DNA of 60,536 nt from Chthoniobacterales bacterium (GCA_036522675.1 DATDFJ010000128.1:1-60536); one strand, 5' to 3'; numbered from the stretch's first letter, positions 12,025 through 53,518 are shown. Notes: generated from the sequence alone by a model not told the origin. Translations and numbers: made by a program.

Positions 12025-15000
12025 ATGCACTACAAACACACGCTGTTTGAGGATTTAGTAAAAGTCGCGACCGCAGTCACCCGGTTTAAGCAGCCGTGGA
12101 AATATCTGACGGCGGCATGCCTATCATGCGCGATGATCGCCCTAGTCGCGCCTCATGTCGCGGCGCAACCGAACGTTGTCGGCAAATGGCAGACGCTTTC
12201 CGGCTCGATGCCGATCAATCCCATCCATGTGGGATTGATGCGCAACGGCAAAGTCTTGATCCTGGCAGGCTCCGGCAACGACGATGCTGAGTTCGATGAG
12301 AAAATTTCCCAATTGGCCATCTGGGATCCTGTGGCAGATCCTCAGGGCAGCGCCATCACGGTGCAAAACGTCGGCTGGGACCTCTTCTGCAACGGTATGG
12401 CCTTCTTGCCGGACGGCCGGGCGCTCATTATCGGCGGCACTGATCAGTACGATCCGTTTCACGGCTCGCCGCGAGCGGCCGTATTCGATCCGCTAAAGCA
12501 GCAGTTCATCCAGGTCCAGAGTATGGCGCACGGTCGCTGGTACGGCACGGTGACCGCCTTAGGGAACGGGCAGTTGATGACATTCTCCGGCTTCACGCAG
12601 AACGATAGTGAGATCAACAAAAATGTCGAGAAGTACGAGGTGGCTTTCGGCTGGCATCCCGAAGTGCAAGCGCCGTGGACGCCGCGACTCTATCCCTGGC
12701 TACACCTCTTGCCCAGCGGCTTGATTTTTTATTCCGGTTATACGCCGGTCTCGTGGATATTCGATCCGGTGGCTCAGACCTGGGCTCTAGGCCCGACTAC
12801 CATATATAACGGCATGCGCACATACGGCAGCTCTGTTTTGCTGCCGTTGTTGCCGCCGAACTATACGCCGCGCGTGATGATCACGGGCGGCGCGCCCATC
12901 TACGATGTCAGTCCGACAGCTCCAGCTACGGCGAGCACGGAGATCATTGACCTCTCGCAACCGAGCCCGTCTTGGACTGCAGGCCCCAACATGTCGGCGC
13001 CCCGTGTCGAGATGAACTCGGTTCTTCTACCTAATGGCAAGGTGCTTCTCTTAGGAGGGTCCAGGATCGACGAGCAGGGCGACGCGCCCGATCCGATCAC
13101 GGGTATTCCTCCGGGCCACCTGGCTGATCTCTACGATCCGGTGTCGAACACGATATCGTCCGCCGGCCACAACAATTTCGACCGGCTCTATCACTCCAAC
13201 GGCATGCTGATGCCGGACGGGACCGTGTGGGTTAGCGGCTCCAACCCAGCCCGCGGCGTGTACGAGTCGCACATGGAGGTCTATTCTCCGCGGTATCTAT
13301 TTAATGCAGACGGCACGCCCGCCGCGCGTCCGCAGATCGTGAGCGCCCCCTCGATCGTCGGCTACGGCGATGCGCCGTTCACCGTTCAAGTCGATGCTCC
13401 GAACACTATTCAGTCTGTGGTGCTAATGCGGAACGGTGCCCCGACGCACGGCTTCGATATGGAGCAGCGGATGATCGGGCTCACTTTCAACTTGGTGAAC
13501 GGCGTCTTGAAAGTCACGCCGCCGCCGAGCGTCAACAGCGTTCCGTCGGGCGCGAACATCGCGCCGCCCGGATATTACATGCTCTTCGTCGTGAACAACG
13601 CCGGCGTGCCTTCCGTGGCGTCCTTCATCCAGCTCACGCTGACCGGCGCGAACCATACGCCGCCTGTTGGAATCCTCAACGCCACACCGGCGCCCGATCA
13701 GAACGGTGTCATTAATATACAAACAGGCGATTCCGTGACCTTTACCGGCAACAGCGTCGGCGGCGCCGCGACCCAGTATTCCTGGATCTTTCCCGAAGTA
13801 GTGCCGGATTCCGACCCGCTCACTTCGCAAAAAGATCCCGGCCCCATCACTTTTCCAATCGCCGGCACTTACACCGTCTCGCTCACAGTAAAAGACAGCG
13901 CGGGCGCGACGGATCCCAGTCCTCCGACTGTGACCGTGACGGTAGTGAATCCAGTCCCTGTGACGCTCAACCTCTCGAAAACCGGCGCGGGCGGCGGGAC
14001 GGTGACGAGCAATCCCGCGGGAATCGACTGCGGCGCGACGTGCAGCGGCCAGTTCTTCAGCAATATCAAGGTGACGCTCACCGCCACGCCGGACGGCCCG
14101 GGCTCGACCTTCAACGGATGGAGTGGAGGGTGGTGCAGCGGCAAGGGCGTGTGCGTACCAACGCTTGACTTCGATCCGACCACGGTCACGGCGAACTTTA
14201 TCGTTACTCCGGAGAAGTTGACGGTTGTGAAAACCGGTGCGGGCAGCGGCACGGTGACGAGCGATTTGTCTGGAATCACTTGCGGAGCGACCTGCTCGAA
14301 AAACTATAACTATGGCGATTCGGTGACGCTCACGGCTACGTCGGCCGCTCCGGGTTCGACGTTCACCGGCTGGAGCGGCGGCGGGTGCAGCGGCACGGGG
14401 GCATGCACGGTTACGCTCACTAGTCCCATCACTGTGACGGCGAATTTTGCACCCATAACGATCAATCTGAATATCTCGAAGAGCGGCACTGGCGGCGGTA
14501 CGGTCACGAGCAACCCCGCCGGCATCGACTGCGGCGCGACCTGTGCGGCGATTTATGGTTATGGTACACCCGTCACGTTGACCGCGGTTCCCGACGCCGG
14601 CTCCGCGTTCAACGGCTGGAGCGGGGGATGCACAGGGACTGGAGATTGCGCGCCGGATTTGACTGCCGACGCGAGCGTCACGGCGGACTTTATTTCGGTT
14701 CCTCCCCTCACTCTCGTGCCTTCTCCGCTTCCCGACGCGGAAGTCGGACTGGATTACAGCTTGACGCTGGTGAACGGCGGCTTACCGCCGTACACCATCA
14801 CGCCGATCAAGGGCGTCCTTCCGGCAGGGATGAGCATCGACCCGGACACCGGGACTCTAAAAGGCAAACCGGATATCGGAAAAGCCACGAGCTTCACAAT
14901 TAAAGTCGCCTATCAGTTCGGGCCCTCCATGACGAGCACTTATAAGCTTGTCGTCCGCAAGCCACTGCTCGTCGCAACCACAGCCCTCAAGGCCGGAACG

Positions 15001-15225
15001 AATAATAAAGCTTACAGCGCGAAGCTCAAAGCCACCGGAGGAAAAGCGCCGTATGCCTGGAGTGAACTGACGGGAAATCTTGTCGGCACCGGGTTAATGC
15101 TAGATTCGGCCACCGGCGCGATCACGGGGATGCCCGCGGCGGGAGCATCCCTTAATTTAACTTTTAAGGTGAGGGATGCACTAGGCGGTGAACAACAGGA
15201 AGATTTTTTGCTCACGATCAATTAG
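12025..15225 (+). CDS. Secreted copper-radical oxidase (galactose/glyoxal oxidase, AA5-like, with DUF1929-type C-domain) fused to a PKD domain, three InlB-B-repeat-like modules and two putative Ig (He_PIG-like) domains
   Basis: All catalytic motifs are present: DLFCNGMAFLPDGRALIIGG (crosslink Cys), HGRWYGT (crosslink Tyr), RLYHSNGMLMPDG (axial Tyr-His) and APTHGFDMEQR (His). The N-terminus is hydrophobic and ends in an AAQP cleavage-like site. Confidence 0.8.
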   Translation: MHYKHTLFEDLVKVATAVTRFKQPWKYLTAACLSCAMIALVAPHVAAQPNVVGKWQTLSGSMPINPIHVGLMRNGKVLILAGSGNDDAEFDEKISQLAIWDPVADPQGSAITVQNVGWDLFCNGMAFLPDGRALIIGGTDQYDPFHGSPRAAVFDPLKQQFIQVQSMAHGRWYGTVTALGNGQLMTFSGFTQNDSEINKNVEKYEVAFGWHPEVQAPWTPRLYPWLHLLPSGLIFYSGYTPVSWIFDPVAQTWALGPTTIYNGMRTYGSSVLLPLLPPNYTPRVMITGGAPIYDVSPTAPATASTEIIDLSQPSPSWTAGPNMSAPRVEMNSVLLPNGKVLLLGGSRIDEQGDAPDPITGIPPGHLADLYDPVSNTISSAGHNNFDRLYHSNGMLMPDGTVWVSGSNPARGVYESHMEVYSPRYLFNADGTPAARPQIVSAPSIVGYGDAPFTVQVDAPNTIQSVVLMRNGAPTHGFDMEQRMIGLTFNLVNGVLKVTPPPSVNSVPSGANIAPPGYYMLFVVNNAGVPSVASFIQLTLTGANHTPPVGILNATPAPDQNGVINIQTGDSVTFTGNSVGGAATQYSWIFPEVVPDSDPLTSQKDPGPITFPIAGTYTVSLTVKDSAGATDPSPPTVTVTVVNPVPVTLNLSKTGAGGGTVTSNPAGIDCGATCSGQFFSNIKVTLTATPDGPGSTFNGWSGGWCSGKGVCVPTLDFDPTTVTANFIVTPEKLTVVKTGAGSGTVTSDLSGITCGATCSKNYNYGDSVTLTATSAAPGSTFTGWSGGGCSGTGACTVTLTSPITVTANFAPITINLNISKSGTGGGTVTSNPAGIDCGATCAAIYGYGTPVTLTAVPDAGSAFNGWSGGCTGTGDCAPDLTADASVTADFISVPPLTLVPSPLPDAEVGLDYSLTLVNGGLPPYTITPIKGVLPAGMSIDPDTGTLKGKPDIGKATSFTIKVAYQFGPSMTSTYKLVVRKPLLVATTALKAGTNNKAYSAKLKATGGKAPYAWSELTGNLVGTGLMLDSATGAITGMPAAGASLNLTFKVRDALGGEQQEDFLLTIN
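13960..14691 (+). repeat. Three tandem ~80-aa InlB-B-repeat-like modules (coding repeats) inside the oxidase gene
   Basis: The units are 13960-14199, 14212-14448 and 14455-14691. Each has the pattern GxGGGTVTSxPxGIxCGxTC...VTLTAxPxxGSxFxGWSGGxCxGxGxC...VTAxF. Units 1 and 3 are also visibly similar at DNA level. Confidence 0.8.
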
Positions 15226-26720: not shown

Positions 26721-28616
26721 ATGTGCGGCATCGTAGGACTCTATCGCTGGCCCGGACGCTCCGAGGCGGTCGCGGCGCGGCTCGCCGAGATGTGCCGGAC
26801 GATCGTCCACCGCGGTCCCGACGATCAGGGCACGTTCATCGACGGCGATATCGCGCTCGGGATGCGCCGGCTTAGCATCATCGACGTCGCCGGCGGCCGG
26901 CAGCCGATCGAAAACGAGGACGGCACGGTCAAGATCGTCTTCAACGGCGAAATTTACAACTACCGGGATTTGCGCGGCGAGCTGGCGGCGCGCGGCCATC
27001 GCTTCGCCACGCGCACGGACACGGAGACGATCGTTCACGCGTACGAGGAGCACGGCGTCGACTGCGTCGAGCGGCTGAACGGCATCTTCGCCTTCGCCCT
27101 GTGGGACGCATCCAGGCGGCGTCTCTTCGTCGCGCGCGACCGTATGGGCGTCAAGCCGCTCTACTACGCCGAAACGCTACGCGGGCTCGCCTTCGCGTCC
27201 GAAATCAAGGCGCTGCTGACGCTGCCGGAGATCTCCGCGACGCTCGATGTCTCGGCTGCGGCGGAGTTCTTTCGCCTCGGCTTCGTGCCGCCGCCGCGCA
27301 CGCTTTTTCAAGGAATCCGCAAGCTGCCGCCCGGCCATCGGCTGATCGCGCAGGACGGCGCCGTAAAAATCGAGCGTTACTGGGATCTCGAGTTCGCCGA
27401 GCCGTCGGCGCCGGCGAGCTTCGAGGAGTGCCGCGACGAGCTGCGGGAAATTTTGCGGCAAGCCGTCGCGGATCAGATGGTGAGCGACGTCCCGCTCGGC
27501 GCGTTTTTGAGCGGCGGCGTCGATTCGAGCGCTGTCGTCGCCTTTATGAAGCAGGCGGCGGGGAACGGCGTCCGCACGTTCACGATCGGCTTCGATTCGA
27601 AGCTGCACGCGTATCATAACGAAGCGCCGTACGCCGAGGCGGTCGCGAAAGAGCTCGGCACGCAGCATCAGACGCTCATCGTCCGCCCGCGCGTCGTCGA
27701 TCTCATGCCGGCGCTCATCGAGAAGCTCGACGAGCCGCTTACCGACACGTCGTTTCTGGTCACTTATCTAATTTCTGAGCTCGCGCACCGCGACGTGAAA
27801 GTCGCGCTCTCGGGCGTCGGCGGCGACGAGCTGTTCGGCGGCTACCGCCGCTATCTCGCGCCGGCGATACAAAAAGCCTCAGCCTGGATTCCGGGGGGTC
27901 TCCGCCGCGCGCTCGGCGAGCGCCTCGCGGCCCTGCCCGCAGATCGCGGGTCCGTCATCGGGAATCTCGGCCGCTACGCCAAGGCATGGGGGCGCAGCCT
28001 CCATCTTCCGCTCGGCCGTCAGTATCTGGATCTCGTCTCGGCGCTGCCCGCGGCCCAGGTTGCGACACTGCTTCGCGCCGACTTCGGCTCGCGCGATCCC
28101 GGCGAAGCGCTGGTCGAATGGTTCGACCAAGCCGGTTCAGCCGATGCTCTCGACCGGTTGCTTTACGTCGACGCCAAGTCGGCGCTACCGGAGAGCTTGC
28201 TGCTGTTGACGGATAAAATGGGCATGGCCACTTCCCTGGAAATTCGCGTGCCGCTGCTCGACAACCGCGTCGTCGATTTCGTCCGCCGCGTGCCGGGCGA
28301 CTACCGCCTGCGCAGCTTCAGCCTGAAGCGTTTGCTCAAGGCGGCGGTGAAAGGCGTCGTTCCCGATTTCGTGCTGACGCGATCGAAGCGCGGTTTCGGA
28401 ACGCCGATGGGCACGTGGCTCCGCGGCGATCTTCGGCCGATGATCGACGATTTGCTGAGCGAGGAGAGGCTCACGCGCGGCGGTCTGTTCGACGCGCGCG
28501 CCGTCAAGGATATCGTCGCCGCGCACAATGCCGGCCGGGAGGACTTTACCGAGGCGATCACGGCGCTATTGACGTTCGAGATATGGCGCGAACGATTCGG
28601 GGTGGCGCTGCCATGA
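26721..28616 (+). CDS. Asparagine-synthase-family glutamine amidotransferase (AsnB-like, copy 1)
   Basis: MCGIVG N-terminal nucleophile Cys, the SGGVDSS PP-loop, 631 aa. Confidence 0.9.
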   Translation: MCGIVGLYRWPGRSEAVAARLAEMCRTIVHRGPDDQGTFIDGDIALGMRRLSIIDVAGGRQPIENEDGTVKIVFNGEIYNYRDLRGELAARGHRFATRTDTETIVHAYEEHGVDCVERLNGIFAFALWDASRRRLFVARDRMGVKPLYYAETLRGLAFASEIKALLTLPEISATLDVSAAAEFFRLGFVPPPRTLFQGIRKLPPGHRLIAQDGAVKIERYWDLEFAEPSAPASFEECRDELREILRQAVADQMVSDVPLGAFLSGGVDSSAVVAFMKQAAGNGVRTFTIGFDSKLHAYHNEAPYAEAVAKELGTQHQTLIVRPRVVDLMPALIEKLDEPLTDTSFLVTYLISELAHRDVKVALSGVGGDELFGGYRRYLAPAIQKASAWIPGGLRRALGERLAALPADRGSVIGNLGRYAKAWGRSLHLPLGRQYLDLVSALPAAQVATLLRADFGSRDPGEALVEWFDQAGSADALDRLLYVDAKSALPESLLLLTDKMGMATSLEIRVPLLDNRVVDFVRRVPGDYRLRSFSLKRLLKAAVKGVVPDFVLTRSKRGFGTPMGTWLRGDLRPMIDDLLSEERLTRGGLFDARAVKDIVAAHNAGREDFTEAITALLTFEIWRERFGVALP

Positions 28617-39470: not shown

Positions 39471-41399
39471 ATGTGCGGGATTTCTGGAATATTGTATTTT
39501 GATCCGGCGCGGTCGGTTTCGGCGCAGAGCGTGCGAAACATGTCGCGGACGCTCGCCCATCGAGGTCCCGATGGGGAGGGAGTTTGGATCGAGCGCAACG
39601 TCGGTATGGCGCACCGGAGGCTCGCGATCATCGACCTTCGCCCCGAAGCCGGCCAGCCGATGTGCAATGAGGACGGAACCGTATGGATTACTTTCAACGG
39701 CGAAATTTATAACTTCCAGGAGCTGCGGCAAGATCTGGAAGCCAGGGGCCATCAATTCAAAACGGCCAGCGACACGGAAGCGATCATTCACGCGTATGAA
39801 GAATACGGTCGCGATTGCCTGTCCCGCCTGCGCGGCATGTTCGCCTTTGCCATCTGGGACAGCAGAACGCGGACCCTGTTTCTGGCCCGAGACCGCGTCG
39901 GCAAAAAGCCGCTGTACTATTACGCCGACCGCGAGCGATTTCTCTTCGCTTCGGAAATCAAAGCGATTCTTTCGGAACGGGATGTGCCTGTCGAAGCGGA
40001 CCCGGTCGGCATCGATCATTTCATCGCTTTAGGCTATGTGCCGGCGCCCTATTCCGCTTTCAAGGGGGTGCGCAAACTGCCGGCGGCTCATTGGCTCGAG
40101 ATCCGAAACGGCCGCATCGAGACGGGCCGCTATTGGAAGTTGCGATATCAGCCAAAAAGAGATTTGAATCTGCGCGATGCCGCGGCCGAGCTCCGGTGGC
40201 GAATTGCCGAAGCCGTGCGCATCCGATTGATCAGCGACGTTCCTATAGGAGCTTTCTTGAGCGGCGGCATTGATTCCAGCGCCGTCGTCGCTTCGATGGC
40301 GGGCGCGATGAGCATGCCGGTCAGAACTTTTGCCGTCGGTTTCGAAGAGAGCGAGTTCGATGAGCGGCATTTTGCGCGAATGGTAGCGGAGAAGTTCCAT
40401 ACCGATCACACGGAGCTCATCGTCAAGGCGCCGGTCGCGGATATCCTGCCGAAATTGGTGTGGTACTACGATGAGCCCTTTGGCGATTCCTCGGCTGTTC
40501 CAAGCTACGCCATCGCGCAGTTGACGCGGCAACATGTAACCGTGGTTCTTAACGGCGACGGCGGCGATGAAAATTTCGCCGGCTACGATCGCTACGTTGT
40601 CAACCGCCGCGCGTATCACGGCGAGATCATTCCTGCTGCTCTTCGTCGCGGCCTATGGAGTGCGTTGAGAACCGTTCCCAAGCATTGGCGGAATCGTCGG
40701 CCGTTAGCAAAAATTGCCAGCGTTGCGGAAGCCATGGCCCAAACTCCCGAGTACCGATATGCGCGCTGGATCGCGATTTCCACCGCGGACGATCGGAACG
40801 GACTATACGCCGATGGGTTTCGGCATTTGCTGGATGGCGACCCGTTGGAACGCTTCGTGGAACAGTTCCGGCAGAGTGACGCCGAGGACTGGACCGACGC
40901 GACGCTAGACGCGGATGTCAACCTATATCTCGCGGATGATCTGTTAGTGAAAATGGATCGCGCGACCATGGCGCACTCGCTGGAGGCCCGCTCGCCGTTT
41001 CTCGACCACGTGTTGATGGAATTTGTCGCCACTCTCCCGCCCCAGCTGAAGTTGTCGGGTTCAGAGAAAAAACGGGTGTTAAAGCAGTCTCTTCGGGGTG
41101 TGTTGCCCGACGCTGTTTTGGACCGGCCAAAAATGGGTTTCGGCGCGCCGATCGATGCCTGGTTTCGTAAGGATTTGCGCGAAATGGCGCATGATGTCTT
41201 GTTGTCCTCGAAAGCGAAACAGCGGGGATATTTTCGACCTGGTGCGGTCGAACGCTTACTCGCCGAACATTGTTCCCAAGAAACGGATTACGCGGCGATG
41301 CTTTGGGATCTGTTGGTGCTCGAACTCTGGCATAGAGCTTTTATCGATGATTCATCAGGGCACTTACGCCGCGTCTCCGGTTCTGCCGTGGGCGCCTAA
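39471..41399 (+). CDS. Asparagine-synthase-family glutamine amidotransferase (AsnB-like, copy 2)
   Basis: MCGISG N-terminal Cys, the SGGIDSS PP-loop, 642 aa. Confidence 0.9.
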   Translation: MCGISGILYFDPARSVSAQSVRNMSRTLAHRGPDGEGVWIERNVGMAHRRLAIIDLRPEAGQPMCNEDGTVWITFNGEIYNFQELRQDLEARGHQFKTASDTEAIIHAYEEYGRDCLSRLRGMFAFAIWDSRTRTLFLARDRVGKKPLYYYADRERFLFASEIKAILSERDVPVEADPVGIDHFIALGYVPAPYSAFKGVRKLPAAHWLEIRNGRIETGRYWKLRYQPKRDLNLRDAAAELRWRIAEAVRIRLISDVPIGAFLSGGIDSSAVVASMAGAMSMPVRTFAVGFEESEFDERHFARMVAEKFHTDHTELIVKAPVADILPKLVWYYDEPFGDSSAVPSYAIAQLTRQHVTVVLNGDGGDENFAGYDRYVVNRRAYHGEIIPAALRRGLWSALRTVPKHWRNRRPLAKIASVAEAMAQTPEYRYARWIAISTADDRNGLYADGFRHLLDGDPLERFVEQFRQSDAEDWTDATLDADVNLYLADDLLVKMDRATMAHSLEARSPFLDHVLMEFVATLPPQLKLSGSEKKRVLKQSLRGVLPDAVLDRPKMGFGAPIDAWFRKDLREMAHDVLLSSKAKQRGYFRPGAVERLLAEHCSQETDYAAMLWDLLVLELWHRAFIDDSSGHLRRVSGSAVGA

Positions 41400-48105: not shown

Positions 48106-49302
48106 TTACGGCGTCACTGACAGCGACGCCGGCGGGGTCGGAGGTGTACTGGCGACAGTGCCGCCAGGAGGGCCTATATACGCTTTAGAGACGATCAGGT
48201 TGTCGATAACCTGTTGACCATTCCATACGGTGGGGTCGAGACCGTTGTGATACGCATCGATATTGATTGCGCCAATCCCGGTACAATCACCAAGCCCATT
48301 GCCGCACGTAATTAAATCACTCGCCGAGTATACTTTGCTGCCGTTTACCCAAACCTCAACGATGCCGTCGTTTTTTCCCGCAACGCTCGACAATTTATAA
48401 CGGTATTCAAGCGTATACCACCGGTCGGTATTCAAGCGAAAGATTTTGCCTAAAATGGGAGAATCTCCGGGATTCCTCAAGATCAAAGACTGATAAGGCC
48501 CATACTCATTGTGCTGCGGCTTCACGGTGCAGACAGTGCACATAGGAAACCAGGGATAATTATCGCTCGTGTCGCCATAGCGAACCACTAACGCGTCCGA
48601 AAAGCGGGCCACGGAAAGGGAATCAAACACGCCACACTCGGTCGTGAAGCCGGACGAATAGGCTGAGTTGGTCGGATTGTCGACACCCTCGGGAGGGAAT
48701 GCATAAAAAATCTTGTTATCGTAGCACTGCCCGCTTGAGCCGTAGCCATATTTATCGATTTTGGGGTCACCGGGCCACGTGTAATTGGGCGTGACGTAGT
48801 ACTGCATGCGGATGTAAATATCTTTCGCCGGAGGGCTGCCGTTCGCATAATTGCCACCTGGCTCCCGCAGCTTTCCCCACGTCGAGCCGTTCCCTACCGC
48901 GCCCTTGGTCGAATCCCAGTTCGCGACCCAAACATAATCCGGTTGCGTGCCGCTCGGCATCGCGCCGGAGGGCTTACTTGGATACGACGACGCAGGATTG
49001 ATCTGTCTGCCCTGGAGACCATAAATGAAACCGAATAGACCGGTCGTCAAACCAGGATTGATCCAATTTGAATTGTTGCGGTCAACGACTCCGCTGTAGA
49101 TTAAATTCCCGGGATAGTTGAAATCTTCACAAAAAATGATGTTGGGGTCGGTGTTGCAAATGGACTCGGCGTAGGGTTGCCCAACGCGTGCGGGCGCAGC
49201 GGCGTGCGCCGGCAATTCCGTTCCCAAAAACGCGACCATCGCCAAAAGAGAGAGCGCTACCGCGCGGCTGCGCTTCCGAGTGCCGATTTGAATGCCGTTC
49301 AT
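48106..49302 (-). CDS. Secreted protein, possibly a beta-jelly-roll (ConA-like) polysaccharide lyase/hydrolase
   Basis: I moved the start to the ATG at 49302 (MNGIQIGTRKRSRAVALSLLAMVAFLGTELPAHAAAP is a signal peptide, with GAGGGGG upstream). The C-terminal WYTLEYRYKLSS...NDGIVEVWVNGSKVY resembles PL/GH jelly-roll families. The function is tentative. Confidence 0.6.
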   Translation of the reverse strand: MNGIQIGTRKRSRAVALSLLAMVAFLGTELPAHAAAPARVGQPYAESICNTDPNIIFCEDFNYPGNLIYSGVVDRNNSNWINPGLTTGLFGFIYGLQGRQINPASSYPSKPSGAMPSGTQPDYVWVANWDSTKGAVGNGSTWGKLREPGGNYANGSPPAKDIYIRMQYYVTPNYTWPGDPKIDKYGYGSSGQCYDNKIFYAFPPEGVDNPTNSAYSSGFTTECGVFDSLSVARFSDALVVRYGDTSDNYPWFPMCTVCTVKPQHNEYGPYQSLILRNPGDSPILGKIFRLNTDRWYTLEYRYKLSSVAGKNDGIVEVWVNGSKVYSASDLITCGNGLGDCTGIGAINIDAYHNGLDPTVWNGQQVIDNLIVSKAYIGPPGGTVASTPPTPPASLSVTP

Positions 49303-49340
49303 TAATGAATTCCCCCTCGAGTTACTGTAGCTGTCGCGTT

Positions 49341-51191
49341 CTACCATCTGCCGACGACAGGCCGGTCGCCTTGCATACCGAACTTCGCGCACAGGTCGAC
49401 AGCGCAGCCCTCCCATATGCCGTTGCCGTTCAGATCTAGCAGCCAGTCGCCCGTGCTGGGCCGAAAGACGCCGATCTTATCGATACCGCTGCCGTCCCAA
49501 TCTCCGACGACAGGGATGTCACCGAACTGACCAAAGGAGGCGACACAAACATCTCCGGAACAACGTTTCCCGGCTTTTTTATCTCCATTGGCATCGAGAA
49601 TCCATTGACCCGTCGTCGGACGAAACACTCCGATCTTGGTGGTGCCGCTTCCCGTCCAGTCGCCGACCACAGGAAGGTCCGTGCTGAGACCGAAGCTCTT
49701 CTTGCACAGGTCGCCTGCTTTGCAGCTGTCCAGAGTGCCATTGCCGTTGAGATCAAAATACCAAGTGTGCGAGCTCGGCCGAAAGATTCCTACGCGAACC
49801 TGCCCGGTGCCGGTCCAATCGCCGACAACCGGCTTGTCCCCCGGCATCCCGAAGACGAAGGCGCACGTGCTGAGTTCGCAGCCGTCAAAAGTCCAGTTGC
49901 CGTTGACATCGACATACCATGTCGCTGTGCTGGGATCGAATAATCCCGGAAAATCCGACTGACCGCCGTTCCAGGGGCCGACGATGGGCAGGTCGTTCTG
50001 GTCTCCCATGTTGGTGAGACAAGTATCGACATTGCAGCCGTCCCACGCGCCGTTGCCGTTCGCGTCAAAGTACCATTGTCCGGTGCTCGGGCGGAAGACG
50101 CCTATGGATGCCGCCGTATTCGAAGTAAAGTTTGCCGTCACCGACACATTCGCGCCGAGCGTCACGGTGCAACCCCCCAAGCCGCTGCAGCCGCCGCCGC
50201 TCCAGCCCAAAAAGGCCGCGCCGGGCGCGGGCTGAGGCGATAATGTTACAGTCGTTCCGGTGGCATAAGTCGTAGAACATGTCGACCCACAGTCGATGCC
50301 GGTCGGGCTGCTGAGTATTTTGCCGTTGCCGTTCTTGTTCACGACGAGGTCGGCGCCTTGTGGCGAGAAAGTTGCCGTCACAGACTTGCTGCTCGTCATG
50401 GATACCGTGCATGATCCTCTTCCGTTGCATGCGCCGCTCCAGCCGGTGAACGTCGAACCGGTCGCCGCCGTCGCCGTTAAATTGACCGACGTGCCGCTCG
50501 AATAGGTCTCCGAACAATCGGCGCCGCACGAAATACCTGCGGGCGAGCTCGACACCGAGCCGTTGCCGGTTCCTGAGCTCGTTATATTTTTTACGAGATT
50601 CACCGAGAGCGTAAAGGTTTGAAGCTGAAAGGTCGCTGTACAGGAGGTATTCGCGTTAAGCGTGACGGTTCCATCGCTGCAATCGGCCGCACCGGTCCAG
50701 CCCGTGAAAGTCGAGCCGCTGGCGGCCGCGGCCGTGAGCGTCACGACCGCTCCCGCGGTGAAACTTGCCGTACAGGTGGCGCCGCAATTCAGGCCGGTCG
50801 GCGACGTAGTCACTGTGCCGCTGCCGGTTCCCGACTTCGTTACAGACAGACTGACCGTTCCGGGCGCTGACTGAGCTGTCCCGCAAGCCGCATTCGAGTA
50901 CGGCGAGTCGCCCGCGACGTTGTATGCGCGGATGCGGTAACAATATTGTGTTCCAACGACAACGCTTGTATCCGCATAAGTCGTGATATTCGCGCCGACC
51001 GTGGCCAGCTGAGAAAAAGTTCCACCACTGCCGATCGATCTTTCAACCTTGAAACCGTCTTCGTTTGTGGAGTTGTCCGCCCAGTTGAGTTGTAATTGCG
51101 CTGCGAGTGCGGCACGCGAATCGATGCCGCTTAGGATCAACAGCATTGCTACGACGAAGGCAAGCAAGGTTATTGGTTTTTTTAGGTTCAT
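49341..51191 (-). CDS. Secreted repeat protein: signal peptide, FN3 domain, three InlB-B-repeat-like modules and five FG-GAP/VCBS-like repeats with paired Cys
   Basis: MNLKKPITLLAFVVAMLLILSG signal peptide. FN3-like aa 31-105 (LNWADNSTNEDGFKVERS...YCYRIRAYN). The B-repeats are at aa 111-355. Five units of G(V/I)FRPxTGxWxxDxNGNGxxDxCxxDxCxxFGxxxDxPVVGDW follow. Confidence 0.85.
   Translation of the reverse strand: MNLKKPITLLAFVVAMLLILSGIDSRAALAAQLQLNWADNSTNEDGFKVERSIGSGGTFSQLATVGANITTYADTSVVVGTQYCYRIRAYNVAGDSPYSNAACGTAQSAPGTVSLSVTKSGTGSGTVTTSPTGLNCGATCTASFTAGAVVTLTAAAASGSTFTGWTGAADCSDGTVTLNANTSCTATFQLQTFTLSVNLVKNITSSGTGNGSVSSSPAGISCGADCSETYSSGTSVNLTATAATGSTFTGWSGACNGRGSCTVSMTSSKSVTATFSPQGADLVVNKNGNGKILSSPTGIDCGSTCSTTYATGTTVTLSPQPAPGAAFLGWSGGGCSGLGGCTVTLGANVSVTANFTSNTAASIGVFRPSTGQWYFDANGNGAWDGCNVDTCLTNMGDQNDLPIVGPWNGGQSDFPGLFDPSTATWYVDVNGNWTFDGCELSTCAFVFGMPGDKPVVGDWTGTGQVRVGIFRPSSHTWYFDLNGNGTLDSCKAGDLCKKSFGLSTDLPVVGDWTGSGTTKIGVFRPTTGQWILDANGDKKAGKRCSGDVCVASFGQFGDIPVVGDWDGSGIDKIGVFRPSTGDWLLDLNGNGIWEGCAVDLCAKFGMQGDRPVVGRW
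49344..50105 (-). repeat. Five tandem ~52-aa FG-GAP/VCBS-like coding repeats
   Basis: The units start at aa 363, 416, 468, 520 and 573. Each carries two Cys spaced 4-5 residues apart and ends in PVVGDW or a close variant. Confidence 0.75.
50127..50861 (-). repeat. Three InlB-B-repeat-like coding modules
   Basis: They show the same GxGxGxVxSxPxGIxCGxxC...VxLTAxxxxGSTFTGWSG...C motif as the modules at 13960-14691. Confidence 0.75.
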
Positions 51192-51193
51192 AC

Positions 51194-51243
51194 TACCTCT
51201 AAGTTTTCTCGAAAGGGCGATCGCGCACCTGCTGTTAGAGGTA
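51194..51243 (-). promoter_or_regulatory. Leader hairpin that sequesters the Shine-Dalgarno sequence of the 51191 gene
   Basis: The minus-strand RNA is UACCUCUAA (51243-51235), then a 31-nt loop, then UUAGAGGUA (51202-51194), followed by GU and AUG. The arms form 9 perfect base pairs that cover the GAGG SD. Confidence 0.5.
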
Positions 51244-51357
51244 GCCGAGTTCGCCCGGCGGTCCTGCTGCCATATCTCGCGAGAGACTTAGGCCAGAAAC
51301 TTTGCGTCCCATCCTTTCGGATGGTTTGCCTTTATCGGGTAACCAATGGGTGAACTA

Positions 51358-51373
51358 AGCAACGACAGTGCCA
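51358..51373 (-). promoter_or_regulatory. Sigma-54 (RpoN) -24/-12 promoter
   Basis: The minus strand reads TGGCACTGTCGTTGCT, that is TGGCAC-N5-TTGC, an exact match to the GG/GC core and spacing. It lies about 165 nt upstream of the ATG at 51191 in an AT-rich intergenic region. A sigma-54 activator is encoded at 56288-57844. Confidence 0.7.
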
Positions 51374-51561
51374 ACGTTAATTCCGCAATATAAGAGGAAA
51401 TGCTACTTGCAAAACAACGTGAATTGACAAGATTTGTTATTTTGAAGTGGCAGCAACACGTCAAGTGAAATTTGTAATGACATGTAGGTAAAAGCAGTCA
51501 GTTCCTGATAATGTCCTACAATCTTTATGAAAAAAACGTATTTCTTGGAAGGAGACAAAAA

Positions 51562-51789
51562 ATGTTCGTTGCGACTATTGTGGCCTGTTCGGTTATAATA
51601 GGTGGGACTTGTGCGTTGCAGGTCCTGACCCTTTCGGATTCAACAAGGGTTGTTGTCCTCGGACTGGTTCTTCTTGTCATTGCCGCTTGGACGCATCGGT
51701 TTTTTAAGCGGGAAGGCCGCTCGGAAGGCAGTACTGTAGAAGTTGTCCCAAAAAAAAAGCCGAGGGCGACGAATGACCATCTGCAATAG
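51562..51789 (+). CDS. Small hypothetical membrane protein (75 aa, two hydrophobic segments)
   Basis: GGAAGGAG lies 7 nt upstream of the ATG at 51562. The sequence is MFVATIVACSVIIGGTCALQVL...VVVLGLVLLVIAAW. The 3-prime end overlaps the PPTase start by 17 nt. No family was recognised. Confidence 0.35.
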   Translation: MFVATIVACSVIIGGTCALQVLTLSDSTRVVVLGLVLLVIAAWTHRFFKREGRSEGSTVEVVPKKKPRATNDHLQ

Positions 51790-52564: not shown

Positions 52565-53518
52565 ATGTATCTTGTTACAGGCGGCGGCGGCTTTATCGGA
52601 TCACATATCGTCGAAAAGCTCGTCGGCATGGGTGAGAAGGTTCGCGTCTTCGACAACTTTAGCTTCGGCAAAGCCGACAACCTCAAGCAAGTCGAAGGAC
52701 AAGTGGAGATTATCTCCGGCGATCTTCTCGACGCGGCGGCGCTCGGTCAGGCGATGAGCGGCGTGCGCGTCGTTTTTCATCAAGCGGCTCTGCGGTCGGT
52801 GCCTTTCTCCGTTGAAAATCCGACGCTGGTCAACCGCGTCAATGTCGAAGGTACGCTGAATGTTTTCGTAGCTGCGCGCGATGCCGGAGTGAAGCGCGTG
52901 GTATATGCGTCTTCCTCATCGGTGTACGGCAAATCGCCGACGCTGCCGAAAAGAGAGCAGGACGTGCCGGCGCCGATCTCACCGTACGCCGCTTCGAAAG
53001 CCGCGGGTGAATATTACGGGAAAGTTTTTACCGAGCTGTACAGTTTGGAAACCATCGGACTTCGGTACTTCAATGTCTATGGACCGCGGCAGGATCCGAA
53101 TTCGCAATACGCCGCTGTGATTCCGCGGTTTATCAATTGGGCGTTTCAAGGGGAACCGCTTGAGATCCATGGCGACGGCCTGCAGTCTCGCGACTTCACG
53201 TACATCGACAATGTTGTTTCCGCCAATCTGCACGCGGCGGAAAGCCAATTGGGCGCTGGCGGAGTCTTCAACGTCGGCCAGGGGCGTGCGCACACACTCC
53301 TGGAGGTCGTCGACTTGCTCGAGGATATTATAGGGACGAAGCTCCAGTTGCTCCATATTGCCGGGAGAGCGGGCGATGTGCGGCACACGCAAGCCGACAT
53401 TTCCGAAGCGCAACGCTGCCTGGGCTACGCGCCCGAAATATCGTTCGAGGATGGGTTGTCCCGAACCGTCGCGTATCTTGGCAAGCAAATTGCGTGGTCT
53501 TTGCCGGCGCAAGTGTAG
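52565..53518 (+). CDS. NAD-dependent UDP-sugar 4-epimerase family SDR (WbpP/TviC-like)
   Basis: MYLVTGGGGFIGSHIV, SSSSVYG and YAASKAAGE (S/YxxxK). AGGAGG RBS. Confidence 0.8.
   Translation: MYLVTGGGGFIGSHIVEKLVGMGEKVRVFDNFSFGKADNLKQVEGQVEIISGDLLDAAALGQAMSGVRVVFHQAALRSVPFSVENPTLVNRVNVEGTLNVFVAARDAGVKRVVYASSSSVYGKSPTLPKREQDVPAPISPYAASKAAGEYYGKVFTELYSLETIGLRYFNVYGPRQDPNSQYAAVIPRFINWAFQGEPLEIHGDGLQSRDFTYIDNVVSANLHAAESQLGAGGVFNVGQGRAHTLLEVVDLLEDIIGTKLQLLHIAGRAGDVRHTQADISEAQRCLGYAPEISFEDGLSRTVAYLGKQIAWSLPAQV

Follow-up and report, generated by a model that had tools for sequence, protein, structure and literature searches.

Two kinds of described regulatory element come closest to the locus analysed here: the class I riboswitches for cyclic diguanosine monophosphate (c-di-GMP-I or GEMM-I riboswitches), and the promoters read by RNA polymerase containing sigma-54. 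The window, i.e. the whole stretch of DNA that was analysed, comprises 60,536 nucleotides (Chthoniobacterales bacterium, GCA_036522675.1, DATDFJ010000128.1:1-60536). The system in question is a two-gene operon on its minus strand, encoding the secreted proteins designated gene A and gene B, together with the intergenic gap upstream of gene A. In this gap, a -24/-12 element of the sigma-54 type is followed by a c-di-GMP-I aptamer. We consider it probable that the operon is controlled in two layers, first by sigma-54-dependent initiation and then by the c-di-GMP riboswitch in the leader; that low c-di-GMP permits expression is the less certain part of this proposal.

Among the c-di-GMP-I riboswitches, the nearest examples are Vc2 of Vibrio cholerae and the GEMM elements of Geobacter; in a Geobacter genome, GEMM riboswitches are found ahead of genes for FN3-domain surface proteins (PMC2996986). 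The aptamer of the window shares with these examples the full RF01051 core, the G20/C92-type positions and the location in the leader of an FN3 protein gene. It differs from them in that it follows a sigma-54 promoter, lies in a Nitrospira-type genome and is predicted from sequence. With regard to sigma-54, its control of cell-exterior functions is established (Francke et al. 2011, PMC3162934). The element of the window resembles those promoters in its GG-N10-GC geometry, its extended consensus, its secreted or exopolysaccharide (EPS)-related targets and the presence of a GAFTGA activator nearby. Unlike them, it would give a transcript that opens directly with a riboswitch, and no enhancer site was identified for it. 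A further comparison is provided by the c-di-GMP riboswitch pair of Clostridioides difficile, in which an adhesin is switched ON and a protease removing this adhesin is switched OFF. The window would share with this pair the shutting off, by a c-di-GMP riboswitch, of a matrix- or adhesin-removing enzyme at high c-di-GMP, whereas the riboswitch class, the organism, the enzyme type and the promoter are different, and the OFF sign in the window is a modelled one.

Promoter and riboswitch in the gene A leader

The minus strand at 51373-51358 reads TGGCACTGTCGTTGCT, with GG at 51372/51371 and GC at 51360/51359, in the exact GG-N10-GC geometry. This agrees with an earlier reading of the same DNA (hereafter the sequence-only reading), which had reported exact GG and GC elements with canonical spacing at this place. 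When the site was scored by weight, in a two-strand scan of the window against YTGGCACG-N4-TTGCW, it ranked first (TTGGCACTGTCGTTGCT, 16 of 16.5 points), and it is the sole intergenic one among the high-scoring -24/-12 sites of the window. The exact pattern TGGCAC-N5-TTGCW appeared in 5 of 100 shuffles, which gives an expectation of 0.05 per window. GC content is lowest, within the window, in the 371-bp gap that carries the site (51192-51562; 0.435 in 51201-51600), which the sequence-only reading had described as the only long AT-rich intergenic region; it is not the only long intergenic gap, others being 240-633 bp in length. Neither a promoter-like site in a simple sigma-70 scan of 51100-51700 nor an IHF consensus in the gap was observed. 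The statement that the biosynthetic genes lack a comparable upstream motif stood, apart from a second-best, weaker -24/-12-like site (TTGGCAAGCAAATTGCG, 53478-53494, plus strand). This site is located at the end of the epimerase gene, approximately 150 nt before the start of the UDP-glucose dehydrogenase domain, and could act as an internal promoter for sigma-54.

When the entire window was scanned with Rfam, the single match was to RF01051 (80.3 bits for a gathering score of 35, E 3e-14, full model positions 1-87), located between the -24/-12 motif and the start codon of gene A and ending 63 nt before the ATG. This riboswitch had been overlooked in the sequence-only reading, whose interpretation was therefore incomplete. 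Its P1 helix comprises CCCG (51339-51336) and CGGG (51257-51254), in a register that matches the RF03167 consensus. The equivalents of the ligand-contacting residues G20, A47 and C92 are present (AAAG-GC...GACGC-AAAG...GCC aligned to the consensus), following a numbering that we presumed to map in this way onto the aptamer of the window. The base preceding the GC of GGCAAAC, which corresponds to G20, is a G. As a G at this position marks c-di-GMP sensors, and cyclic GMP-AMP sensors have an A (PMC6140456), the aptamer is, as judged from its sequence, of the c-di-GMP class and of G20 type.

In sigma-54 promoters, transcription starts approximately 12 nt downstream of the GC of the -12 element. 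The start predicted from this geometry (around 51347) precedes the Rfam aptamer by approximately 7 nt and P1 by 8 nt. According to the folding models, once the aptamer is closed, the anti-Shine-Dalgarno (anti-SD) segment pairs over 11 bp with UUAGAGGUAGU (51202-51192) and covers the Shine-Dalgarno (SD) sequence of gene A, and in the free model the ACCU of the anti-SD segment pairs with an SD-like AGGU at 51230-51227. The same anti-SD design is present in two further loci, L061 and L064. We also observed that the first 7 nt of the predicted transcript, AUUGGUU (51347-51341, minus strand), are perfectly complementary to AACCAAU (51178-51172, minus strand), which corresponds to codons 5-7 of gene A. 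This pairing closes the entire leader in the aptamer-bound model; the complementarity may be due to chance.

Table 1. Positions of the operon, its leader elements and the neighbouring regulatory genes in the window
Feature	Position	Strand	Basis or remark
Sigma-54 type -24/-12 promoter TGGCAC-TGTCG-TTGCT	51358-51373	-	Exact consensus, comparative conservation
Predicted transcription start	51345-51349	-	Sigma-54 geometry, about 12 nt past the -12 GC
c-di-GMP-I (GEMM-I) riboswitch aptamer	51254-51340	-	Rfam RF01051
Anti-SD segment GCUACCUCUAA of the expression platform	51235-51245	-	Folding models
SD GAGG (51199-51196) and ATG (51191-51189) of gene A	51189-51202	-	
Gene A, secreted 616-aa protein	49341-51191	-	Domain searches, signal peptide
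Gene B, secreted 398-aa beta-jelly-roll protein, polysaccharide-lyase-like	48106-49302	-	AlphaFold, Foldseek
PAS histidine kinase (55178-56260) and NtrC/AtoC-type activator (56288-57844)	55178-57844	+	Domain searches
Weak palindrome ACATGTCA-N14-TGACGTGT	51456-51485		18-nt arms, 72% complementary; about 123 nt upstream of the predicted start

Conservation of the promoter and recurrence of the tandem

Relatives of gene B were identified in six genomes of Nitrospira or Nitrospiraceae type (L001-L006, 34-65% identity), and soil metagenomes contain the window sequence itself. Each of the seven upstream regions (the window and L001-L006) has a single GGCAY-N5-TTGCY, at a distance of 93-340 nt from the start codon of the first gene, for a chance of 0.001-0.0045 per region. 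Look-ups of metagenomes and contigs provided further promoter sites in L008, L016/L017, L018 and L141. Where the diverged intergenic DNA of L002 and L141 was aligned pairwise, no identical stretch exceeds those that contain the motif (21 and 24 nt). A second exact sigma-54 consensus, TGGCACCCAACTTGCT, is found directly upstream of the gene B orthologue in L002 (6830-6845) and L141 (4829-4844), these two lineages exhibiting their own -24/-12 site for each gene of the pair.

Gene B is the conserved partner of the operon. The first gene varies, encoding a BACON-repeat/FN3 protein in five loci and a gene-A-like protein in L003. The synteny is conserved in five of the six loci, L006 being the one that departs: the operon and the UDP-glucose dehydrogenase gene are divergently oriented, and gene B is followed by convergent genes for Wzy, GT4 and carbamoyltransferase. 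As the core motif occurs once per orthologous upstream region and forms the identical alignment blocks, we conclude from these comparisons that the sigma-54 promoter is probably the ancestral, conserved control of the operon in Nitrospira relatives. The proposal of the sequence-only reading that a sigma-54 promoter drives the two-gene operon is thereby backed at every orthologous locus. Nitrospira has rpoN (PMC8553950); the window itself comprises no rpoN gene and does encode a GAFTGA activator.

The riboswitch has a narrower distribution. Among the orthologous loci, the aptamer was observed only in the window, L004 and L005, and the long leaders of L003 and L006 showed no Rfam element even at E<=1; the promoter motif is kept also in loci without the riboswitch. 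The expression platform differs within the orthologues as well: in L004 and L005 the aptamer is followed by an intrinsic terminator, whereas the window uses an SD-sequestering helix. The riboswitch is, as far as these sequences indicate, a lineage-specific addition to the operon, to which it would add a second, post-initiation layer of control.

The tandem is found well beyond this group. We scanned one genome per species (185,579 species) for TGGCAY-N5-TTGC with GGCAAAC-N11-25-GACGCAAAG, the aptamer core, located 15-45 nt further downstream. The pattern occurs in at least 118 stretches, compared with a single stretch for a control pattern with an N8 spacer, which is unusable by sigma-54. Among the matches listed, a pyrimidine precedes TGGCA in 88 of 118 and an A or T follows TTGC in 95 of 118, in agreement with the extended sigma-54 consensus at two positions left unfixed by the pattern. 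The gap in these matches is never shorter than 19 nt although 15-18 nt were permitted, as expected if the start must precede P1. The same matches represent 97 unrelated leaders and about 40 protein families, and they span Desulfobacterota, Rokubacteria/Methylomirabilota, Gemmatimonadota, Acidobacteriota, Myxococcota, Brocadia and others. Their downstream open reading frames (n = 102) comprise 28 with fn3, 18 with PKD and 13 with InlB B-repeat domains, the types that predominate behind the tandem, and many of the products exhibit, like gene A, a signal peptide and then an 'L-L-W-N-E-GF' motif. An activator gene lies within 8 kb in 6 of the 118 listed loci. The result of the spacer test, at least 118 stretches versus 1, suggests that selection, not accident, has shaped the tandem in several phyla that are poorly studied. 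Full-text literature searches, in which absence is not proof, yielded no description of a sigma-54/c-di-GMP-I pairing. The parts are of known kinds, and it is their serial combination, its recurrence across phyla and the link with FN3/PKD/B-repeat proteins that appear to be undescribed.

Several observations weigh against this reading of promoter and riboswitch. When up to one mismatch is allowed, 1.37 matches to the promoter pattern are expected per window; by itself, in one window, the motif is suggestive, with a modest significance only. In an unbiased sample of 116 aptamer cores, none has the exact consensus within 170 nt upstream, and the tandem is therefore a minority arrangement among c-di-GMP-I riboswitches. 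In L004 and L005, the motif is AGGCAT, not TGGCAC, and lies approximately 100 nt upstream of the aptamer, and another promoter could serve these loci. No conserved activator-binding site was found, the k-mers common to ten upstream regions being AT-rich words only. The window locus was present in none of the RNA runs searched, the start being a prediction based on geometry. In Brocadia, the metatranscriptome contigs cover only core fragments of 31-50 nt that are common to paralogues, the unique leader being unassembled, and the Desulfosarcina runs show a flat, low, DNA-like depth.

It could be argued, from the absence of the consensus upstream of the 116 sampled cores, from the modest significance of the motif in one window and from the fact that Nitrospira promoters are poorly known, that the -24/-12 match is unused. 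The operon would then depend on a sigma-70-type promoter in the AT-rich gap, with the riboswitch as its only specific regulator. We regard this as very improbable: the motif is kept at all orthologous loci, including the riboswitch-free ones; it forms islands of conservation; the spacer test speaks against chance; the simple scan found no sigma-70-like site; and the predicted start falls just before P1. Sigma-54 initiation upstream of the riboswitch is the reading that we retain.

Some of the genomes with the tandem deserve a brief mention. Candidatus Brocadia pituitae (L081) exhibits two c-di-GMP-I riboswitches (4241-4357 and 3012-3108), 1.2 kb apart. In anammox metatranscriptomes, words of the aptamer core reach depths in the thousands, whereas depths in the downstream gene range from tens to about a hundred, a contrast that numerous paralogous leaders, highly expressed or prematurely terminated, would explain. 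Near-identical loci comprising promoter, riboswitch and a 235-aa protein, typical of Methylomirabilota/Rokubacteria (L034, L052, L105 and similar), are also found in bins labelled Nitrosotalea (an archaeon), Verrucomicrobiia and Limnocylindria, and mis-binned contigs are the likely cause of these odd labels.

The encoded proteins and the sign of the switch

Gene A comprises a signal peptide, an FN3-like N-terminal domain (LQLNWADNSTNEDGF), three to four InlB-type B-repeats (PF18998, 8e-24) and FG-GAP-like C-terminal repeats, and the protein of locus L110 is 50% identical to it. Its TAG stop codon (49343-49341) is followed by 38 nt with GAGGGGGA and then by the ATG of gene B at 49302. The FN3/B-repeat/FG-GAP protein and, 38 nt after its stop, the secreted jelly-roll lyase-like protein had been described in the same way from the sequence alone. 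Both products are secreted and neither exhibits a PEP-CTERM tail. The term "matrix-type", which had been applied to the two proteins, is too narrow for gene B, given its lyase fold and the phage-tail homologue described below.

The gene B family comprises 82 unnamed clusters, in which many homologues match PF21294 or PF14099. Gene B itself reaches 19.9 bits with PF21294, below the gathering score of 27, and a profile search with it against PDB sequences gave nothing meaningful. Its AlphaFold model (pLDDT 88.6) was matched by Foldseek to polysaccharide lyases (PL) of families PL36, PL20 and PL14 (6kzk 5.6e-9, 2zzj 4.1e-8, 5gmt 2.3e-7, 3a0n 7.1e-7). The described enzymes of these families include vAL-1 and Aplysia AkAly30 (PL14), glucuronan lyase (PL20) and Aly36B (PL36). 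Gene B resembles them in its fold (TM to target 0.5-0.55), in the PF21294/PF14099 domains carried by members of its family and in the vicinity of a uronic-acid supply gene, the UDP-glucose dehydrogenase gene adjoining the operon. It differs from them in sequence (approximately 10% identity) and in its sub-cutoff Pfam score, the likeness being one of predicted fold. According to its model, gene B has a polysaccharide-lyase fold, and the lyase activity is a predicted one. A uronic-acid polymer would be a fitting substrate, given that UDP-glucose dehydrogenase is a conserved neighbour. Among the homologues of gene B, the closest (84% identical) is located in a lambda-like phage tail module (L139 1175-2329, L140 1113-2267), and this suggests that the phage-borne protein is a depolymerase related to the host enzyme. 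The neighbours in this module are minor tail proteins, NlpC/P60 and the central tail fibre J. Gene B may thus be predicted to degrade or trim the matrix rather than to build it.

The sign of the switch was assessed by folding. In the window model, opening of the SD-AUG region costs 5.1 kcal/mol in the free state versus 9.3 kcal/mol with P1 enforced, and in the free structure the aptamer strands CUAAGU and UCUCG pair with ACUUAG and CGAGA beside the SD. In L004 and L005, the terminator lies outside the aptamer, and in the free state its 5' arm pairs with the aptamer core before the 3' arm is made; folding gives -60.7 kcal/mol free versus -50.5 kcal/mol with the aptamer locked. In these models, this layout looks like an OFF-switch design. 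As opening of the SD is dearer with P1 closed, and given this terminator layout, we put the chance that c-di-GMP turns expression of the operon OFF at slightly better than even, which makes it the weakest step of the model.

The opposite sign finds arguments in the same data. The OFF assignment is based on two modelled cases; equilibrium folding of L061, L064 and L110 leaves the SD locked in both states (10-17 kcal/mol); and the known c-di-GMP-I switches at adhesin-type genes are often ON. In L061, moreover, an SD-mimic, CGAGGA, right after P1 can capture the anti-SD segment and is also complementary to an aptamer strand, so that L061 could, as modelled, be a kinetic ON switch. If the window had such a design, the two layers would form an AND gate in which high c-di-GMP permits translation, and gene B would trim the polymer during biosynthesis, like AlgL or PslG. 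The location of the operon in an EPS biosynthesis locus, beside UDP-glucose dehydrogenase, would be in line with this, EPS loci commonly encoding a lyase or hydrolase required for export. We nevertheless consider the ON switch rather unlikely, in view of the dearer SD opening with the aptamer closed in the window model, of the OFF-like terminators of L004 and L005, and of the phage-borne gene B homologue, which points to degradation.

Based on the favoured OFF sign, we propose a model in two steps. In the first, sigma-54 RNA polymerase would bind the -24/-12 element, a step strongly supported by comparison, and would start near 51347 only with an ATP-dependent enhancer-binding activator switched on. 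In the second, the first 95 nt or so of the transcript would fold as the c-di-GMP-I aptamer, an element detected directly and to which we ascribe the following action. Binding of the ligand would close P1 (CCCG:CGGG) and free the anti-SD segment, which would then lock the ribosome-binding site of gene A in the 11-bp helix. Without ligand, the aptamer strands would pair just 5' of the SD, the anti-SD segment would be held on the SD-mimic, and the SD would be weakly paired. The outcome would be an AND-NOT gate, production of the proteins requiring a switched-on activator together with low c-di-GMP. Such a gate would suit a lyase-like gene B product by which a uronic-acid-containing exopolysaccharide is trimmed or dissolved, gene A providing a surface protein of FN3/B-repeat type.

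The local regulator, the exopolysaccharide locus and implications

The activator encoded 5 kb from the operon exhibits REC, sigma-54 AAA+ and HTH_8 domains, and its GAFTGA loop is intact, as stated in the sequence-only reading. That reading drew an analogy with PrsR of PEP-CTERM/EPS systems, under which the sigma-54 promoter and the nearby PrsR-like regulator would be the whole story. The promoter is well supported by conservation, an intact NtrC-family activator lies with its partner kinase at this short distance, and the window, like the PrsK/PrsR systems (TIGR02915/TIGR02916), shows such an activator in an EPS locus with GT4 glycosyltransferases and XrtA-system-like amidotransferases. The analogy failed on closer comparison. 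The regulator scores 370.1 bits with TIGR02915 (PrsR), for a cutoff of 502.6; its best match is AtoC-like, also under the cutoff of that model; and it is paired with a PAS kinase of 360 aa in place of PrsK. The window proteins that were scanned include neither an exosortase nor PrsK, PrsT or a PEP-CTERM tail, and we rejected membership of a PrsR/PrsK PEP-CTERM system. Moreover, the 7-kb flanks examined at the six orthologous loci do not contain this regulator, and the leader carries a full c-di-GMP-I riboswitch, so that promoter and PrsR-like regulator as the sole control is improbable.

For the two-layer control that we prefer, the local pair of PAS kinase and NtrC-type regulator is a candidate activator of the promoter. 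A search for conserved activator-binding dyads, as the sequence-only reading had envisaged upstream of the promoter, gave the weak palindrome of Table 1 as the only candidate; it is not conserved in the orthologues, and its role as an activator-binding site is speculative.

On the other side of the gap, a small open reading frame (51563-51789, plus strand) with a hydrophobic N-terminus and its own GGAGA ribosome site opens a divergent unit comprising PPTase, epimerase and UDP-glucose dehydrogenase genes. A similar divergent small reading frame is present in L003, and no promoter was identified for the one in the window. As a whole, the window represents a large EPS locus, in which numerous GT4 enzymes are accompanied by a flippase, a Wzy-like protein and two amidotransferases of AsnB-like type. 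The asparagine-synthase-like paralogues (26721-28616 and 39471-41399, plus strand) score 598 and 668 bits versus a cutoff of 816.9 for the XrtA/PEP-CTERM amidotransferase. A GlxA-like radical copper oxidase region is present in a further protein of the locus (1066 aa; 12025-15225, plus strand). The first open reading frame of the window (61-2988, plus strand, 975 aa) exhibits 'choice-of-anchor Z' repeats and a TafC-like part. At the other end, an OlsA-like acyltransferase (58139-59077, minus strand) and an OlsF C-terminal-like N-acyltransferase (59248-60240, plus strand), both below their cutoffs, form a divergent pair that resembles ornithine-lipid synthesis genes.

With regard to its meaning, the tandem shows that an all-or-none, activator-dependent promoter and a second-messenger checkpoint can be combined on one transcript. 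We would only tentatively extend this to a widespread sigma-54/c-di-GMP-I module that makes the production of FN3/PKD/B-repeat proteins dependent on two signals and that acts, in Nitrospira, as an AND-NOT switch for dispersal or remodelling by a matrix lyase. Nitrospira are key nitrite oxidisers in the flocs and biofilms of soil and wastewater plants, and little is known about the regulation of their matrix. The locus offers a concrete circuit, in which a single promoter and a single riboswitch precede the genes for two secreted proteins. Should gene B encode a lyase that acts on the self-made exopolysaccharide and is produced when c-di-GMP is low, dispersal would be a candidate function of this enzyme, of which a phage-borne relative exists.

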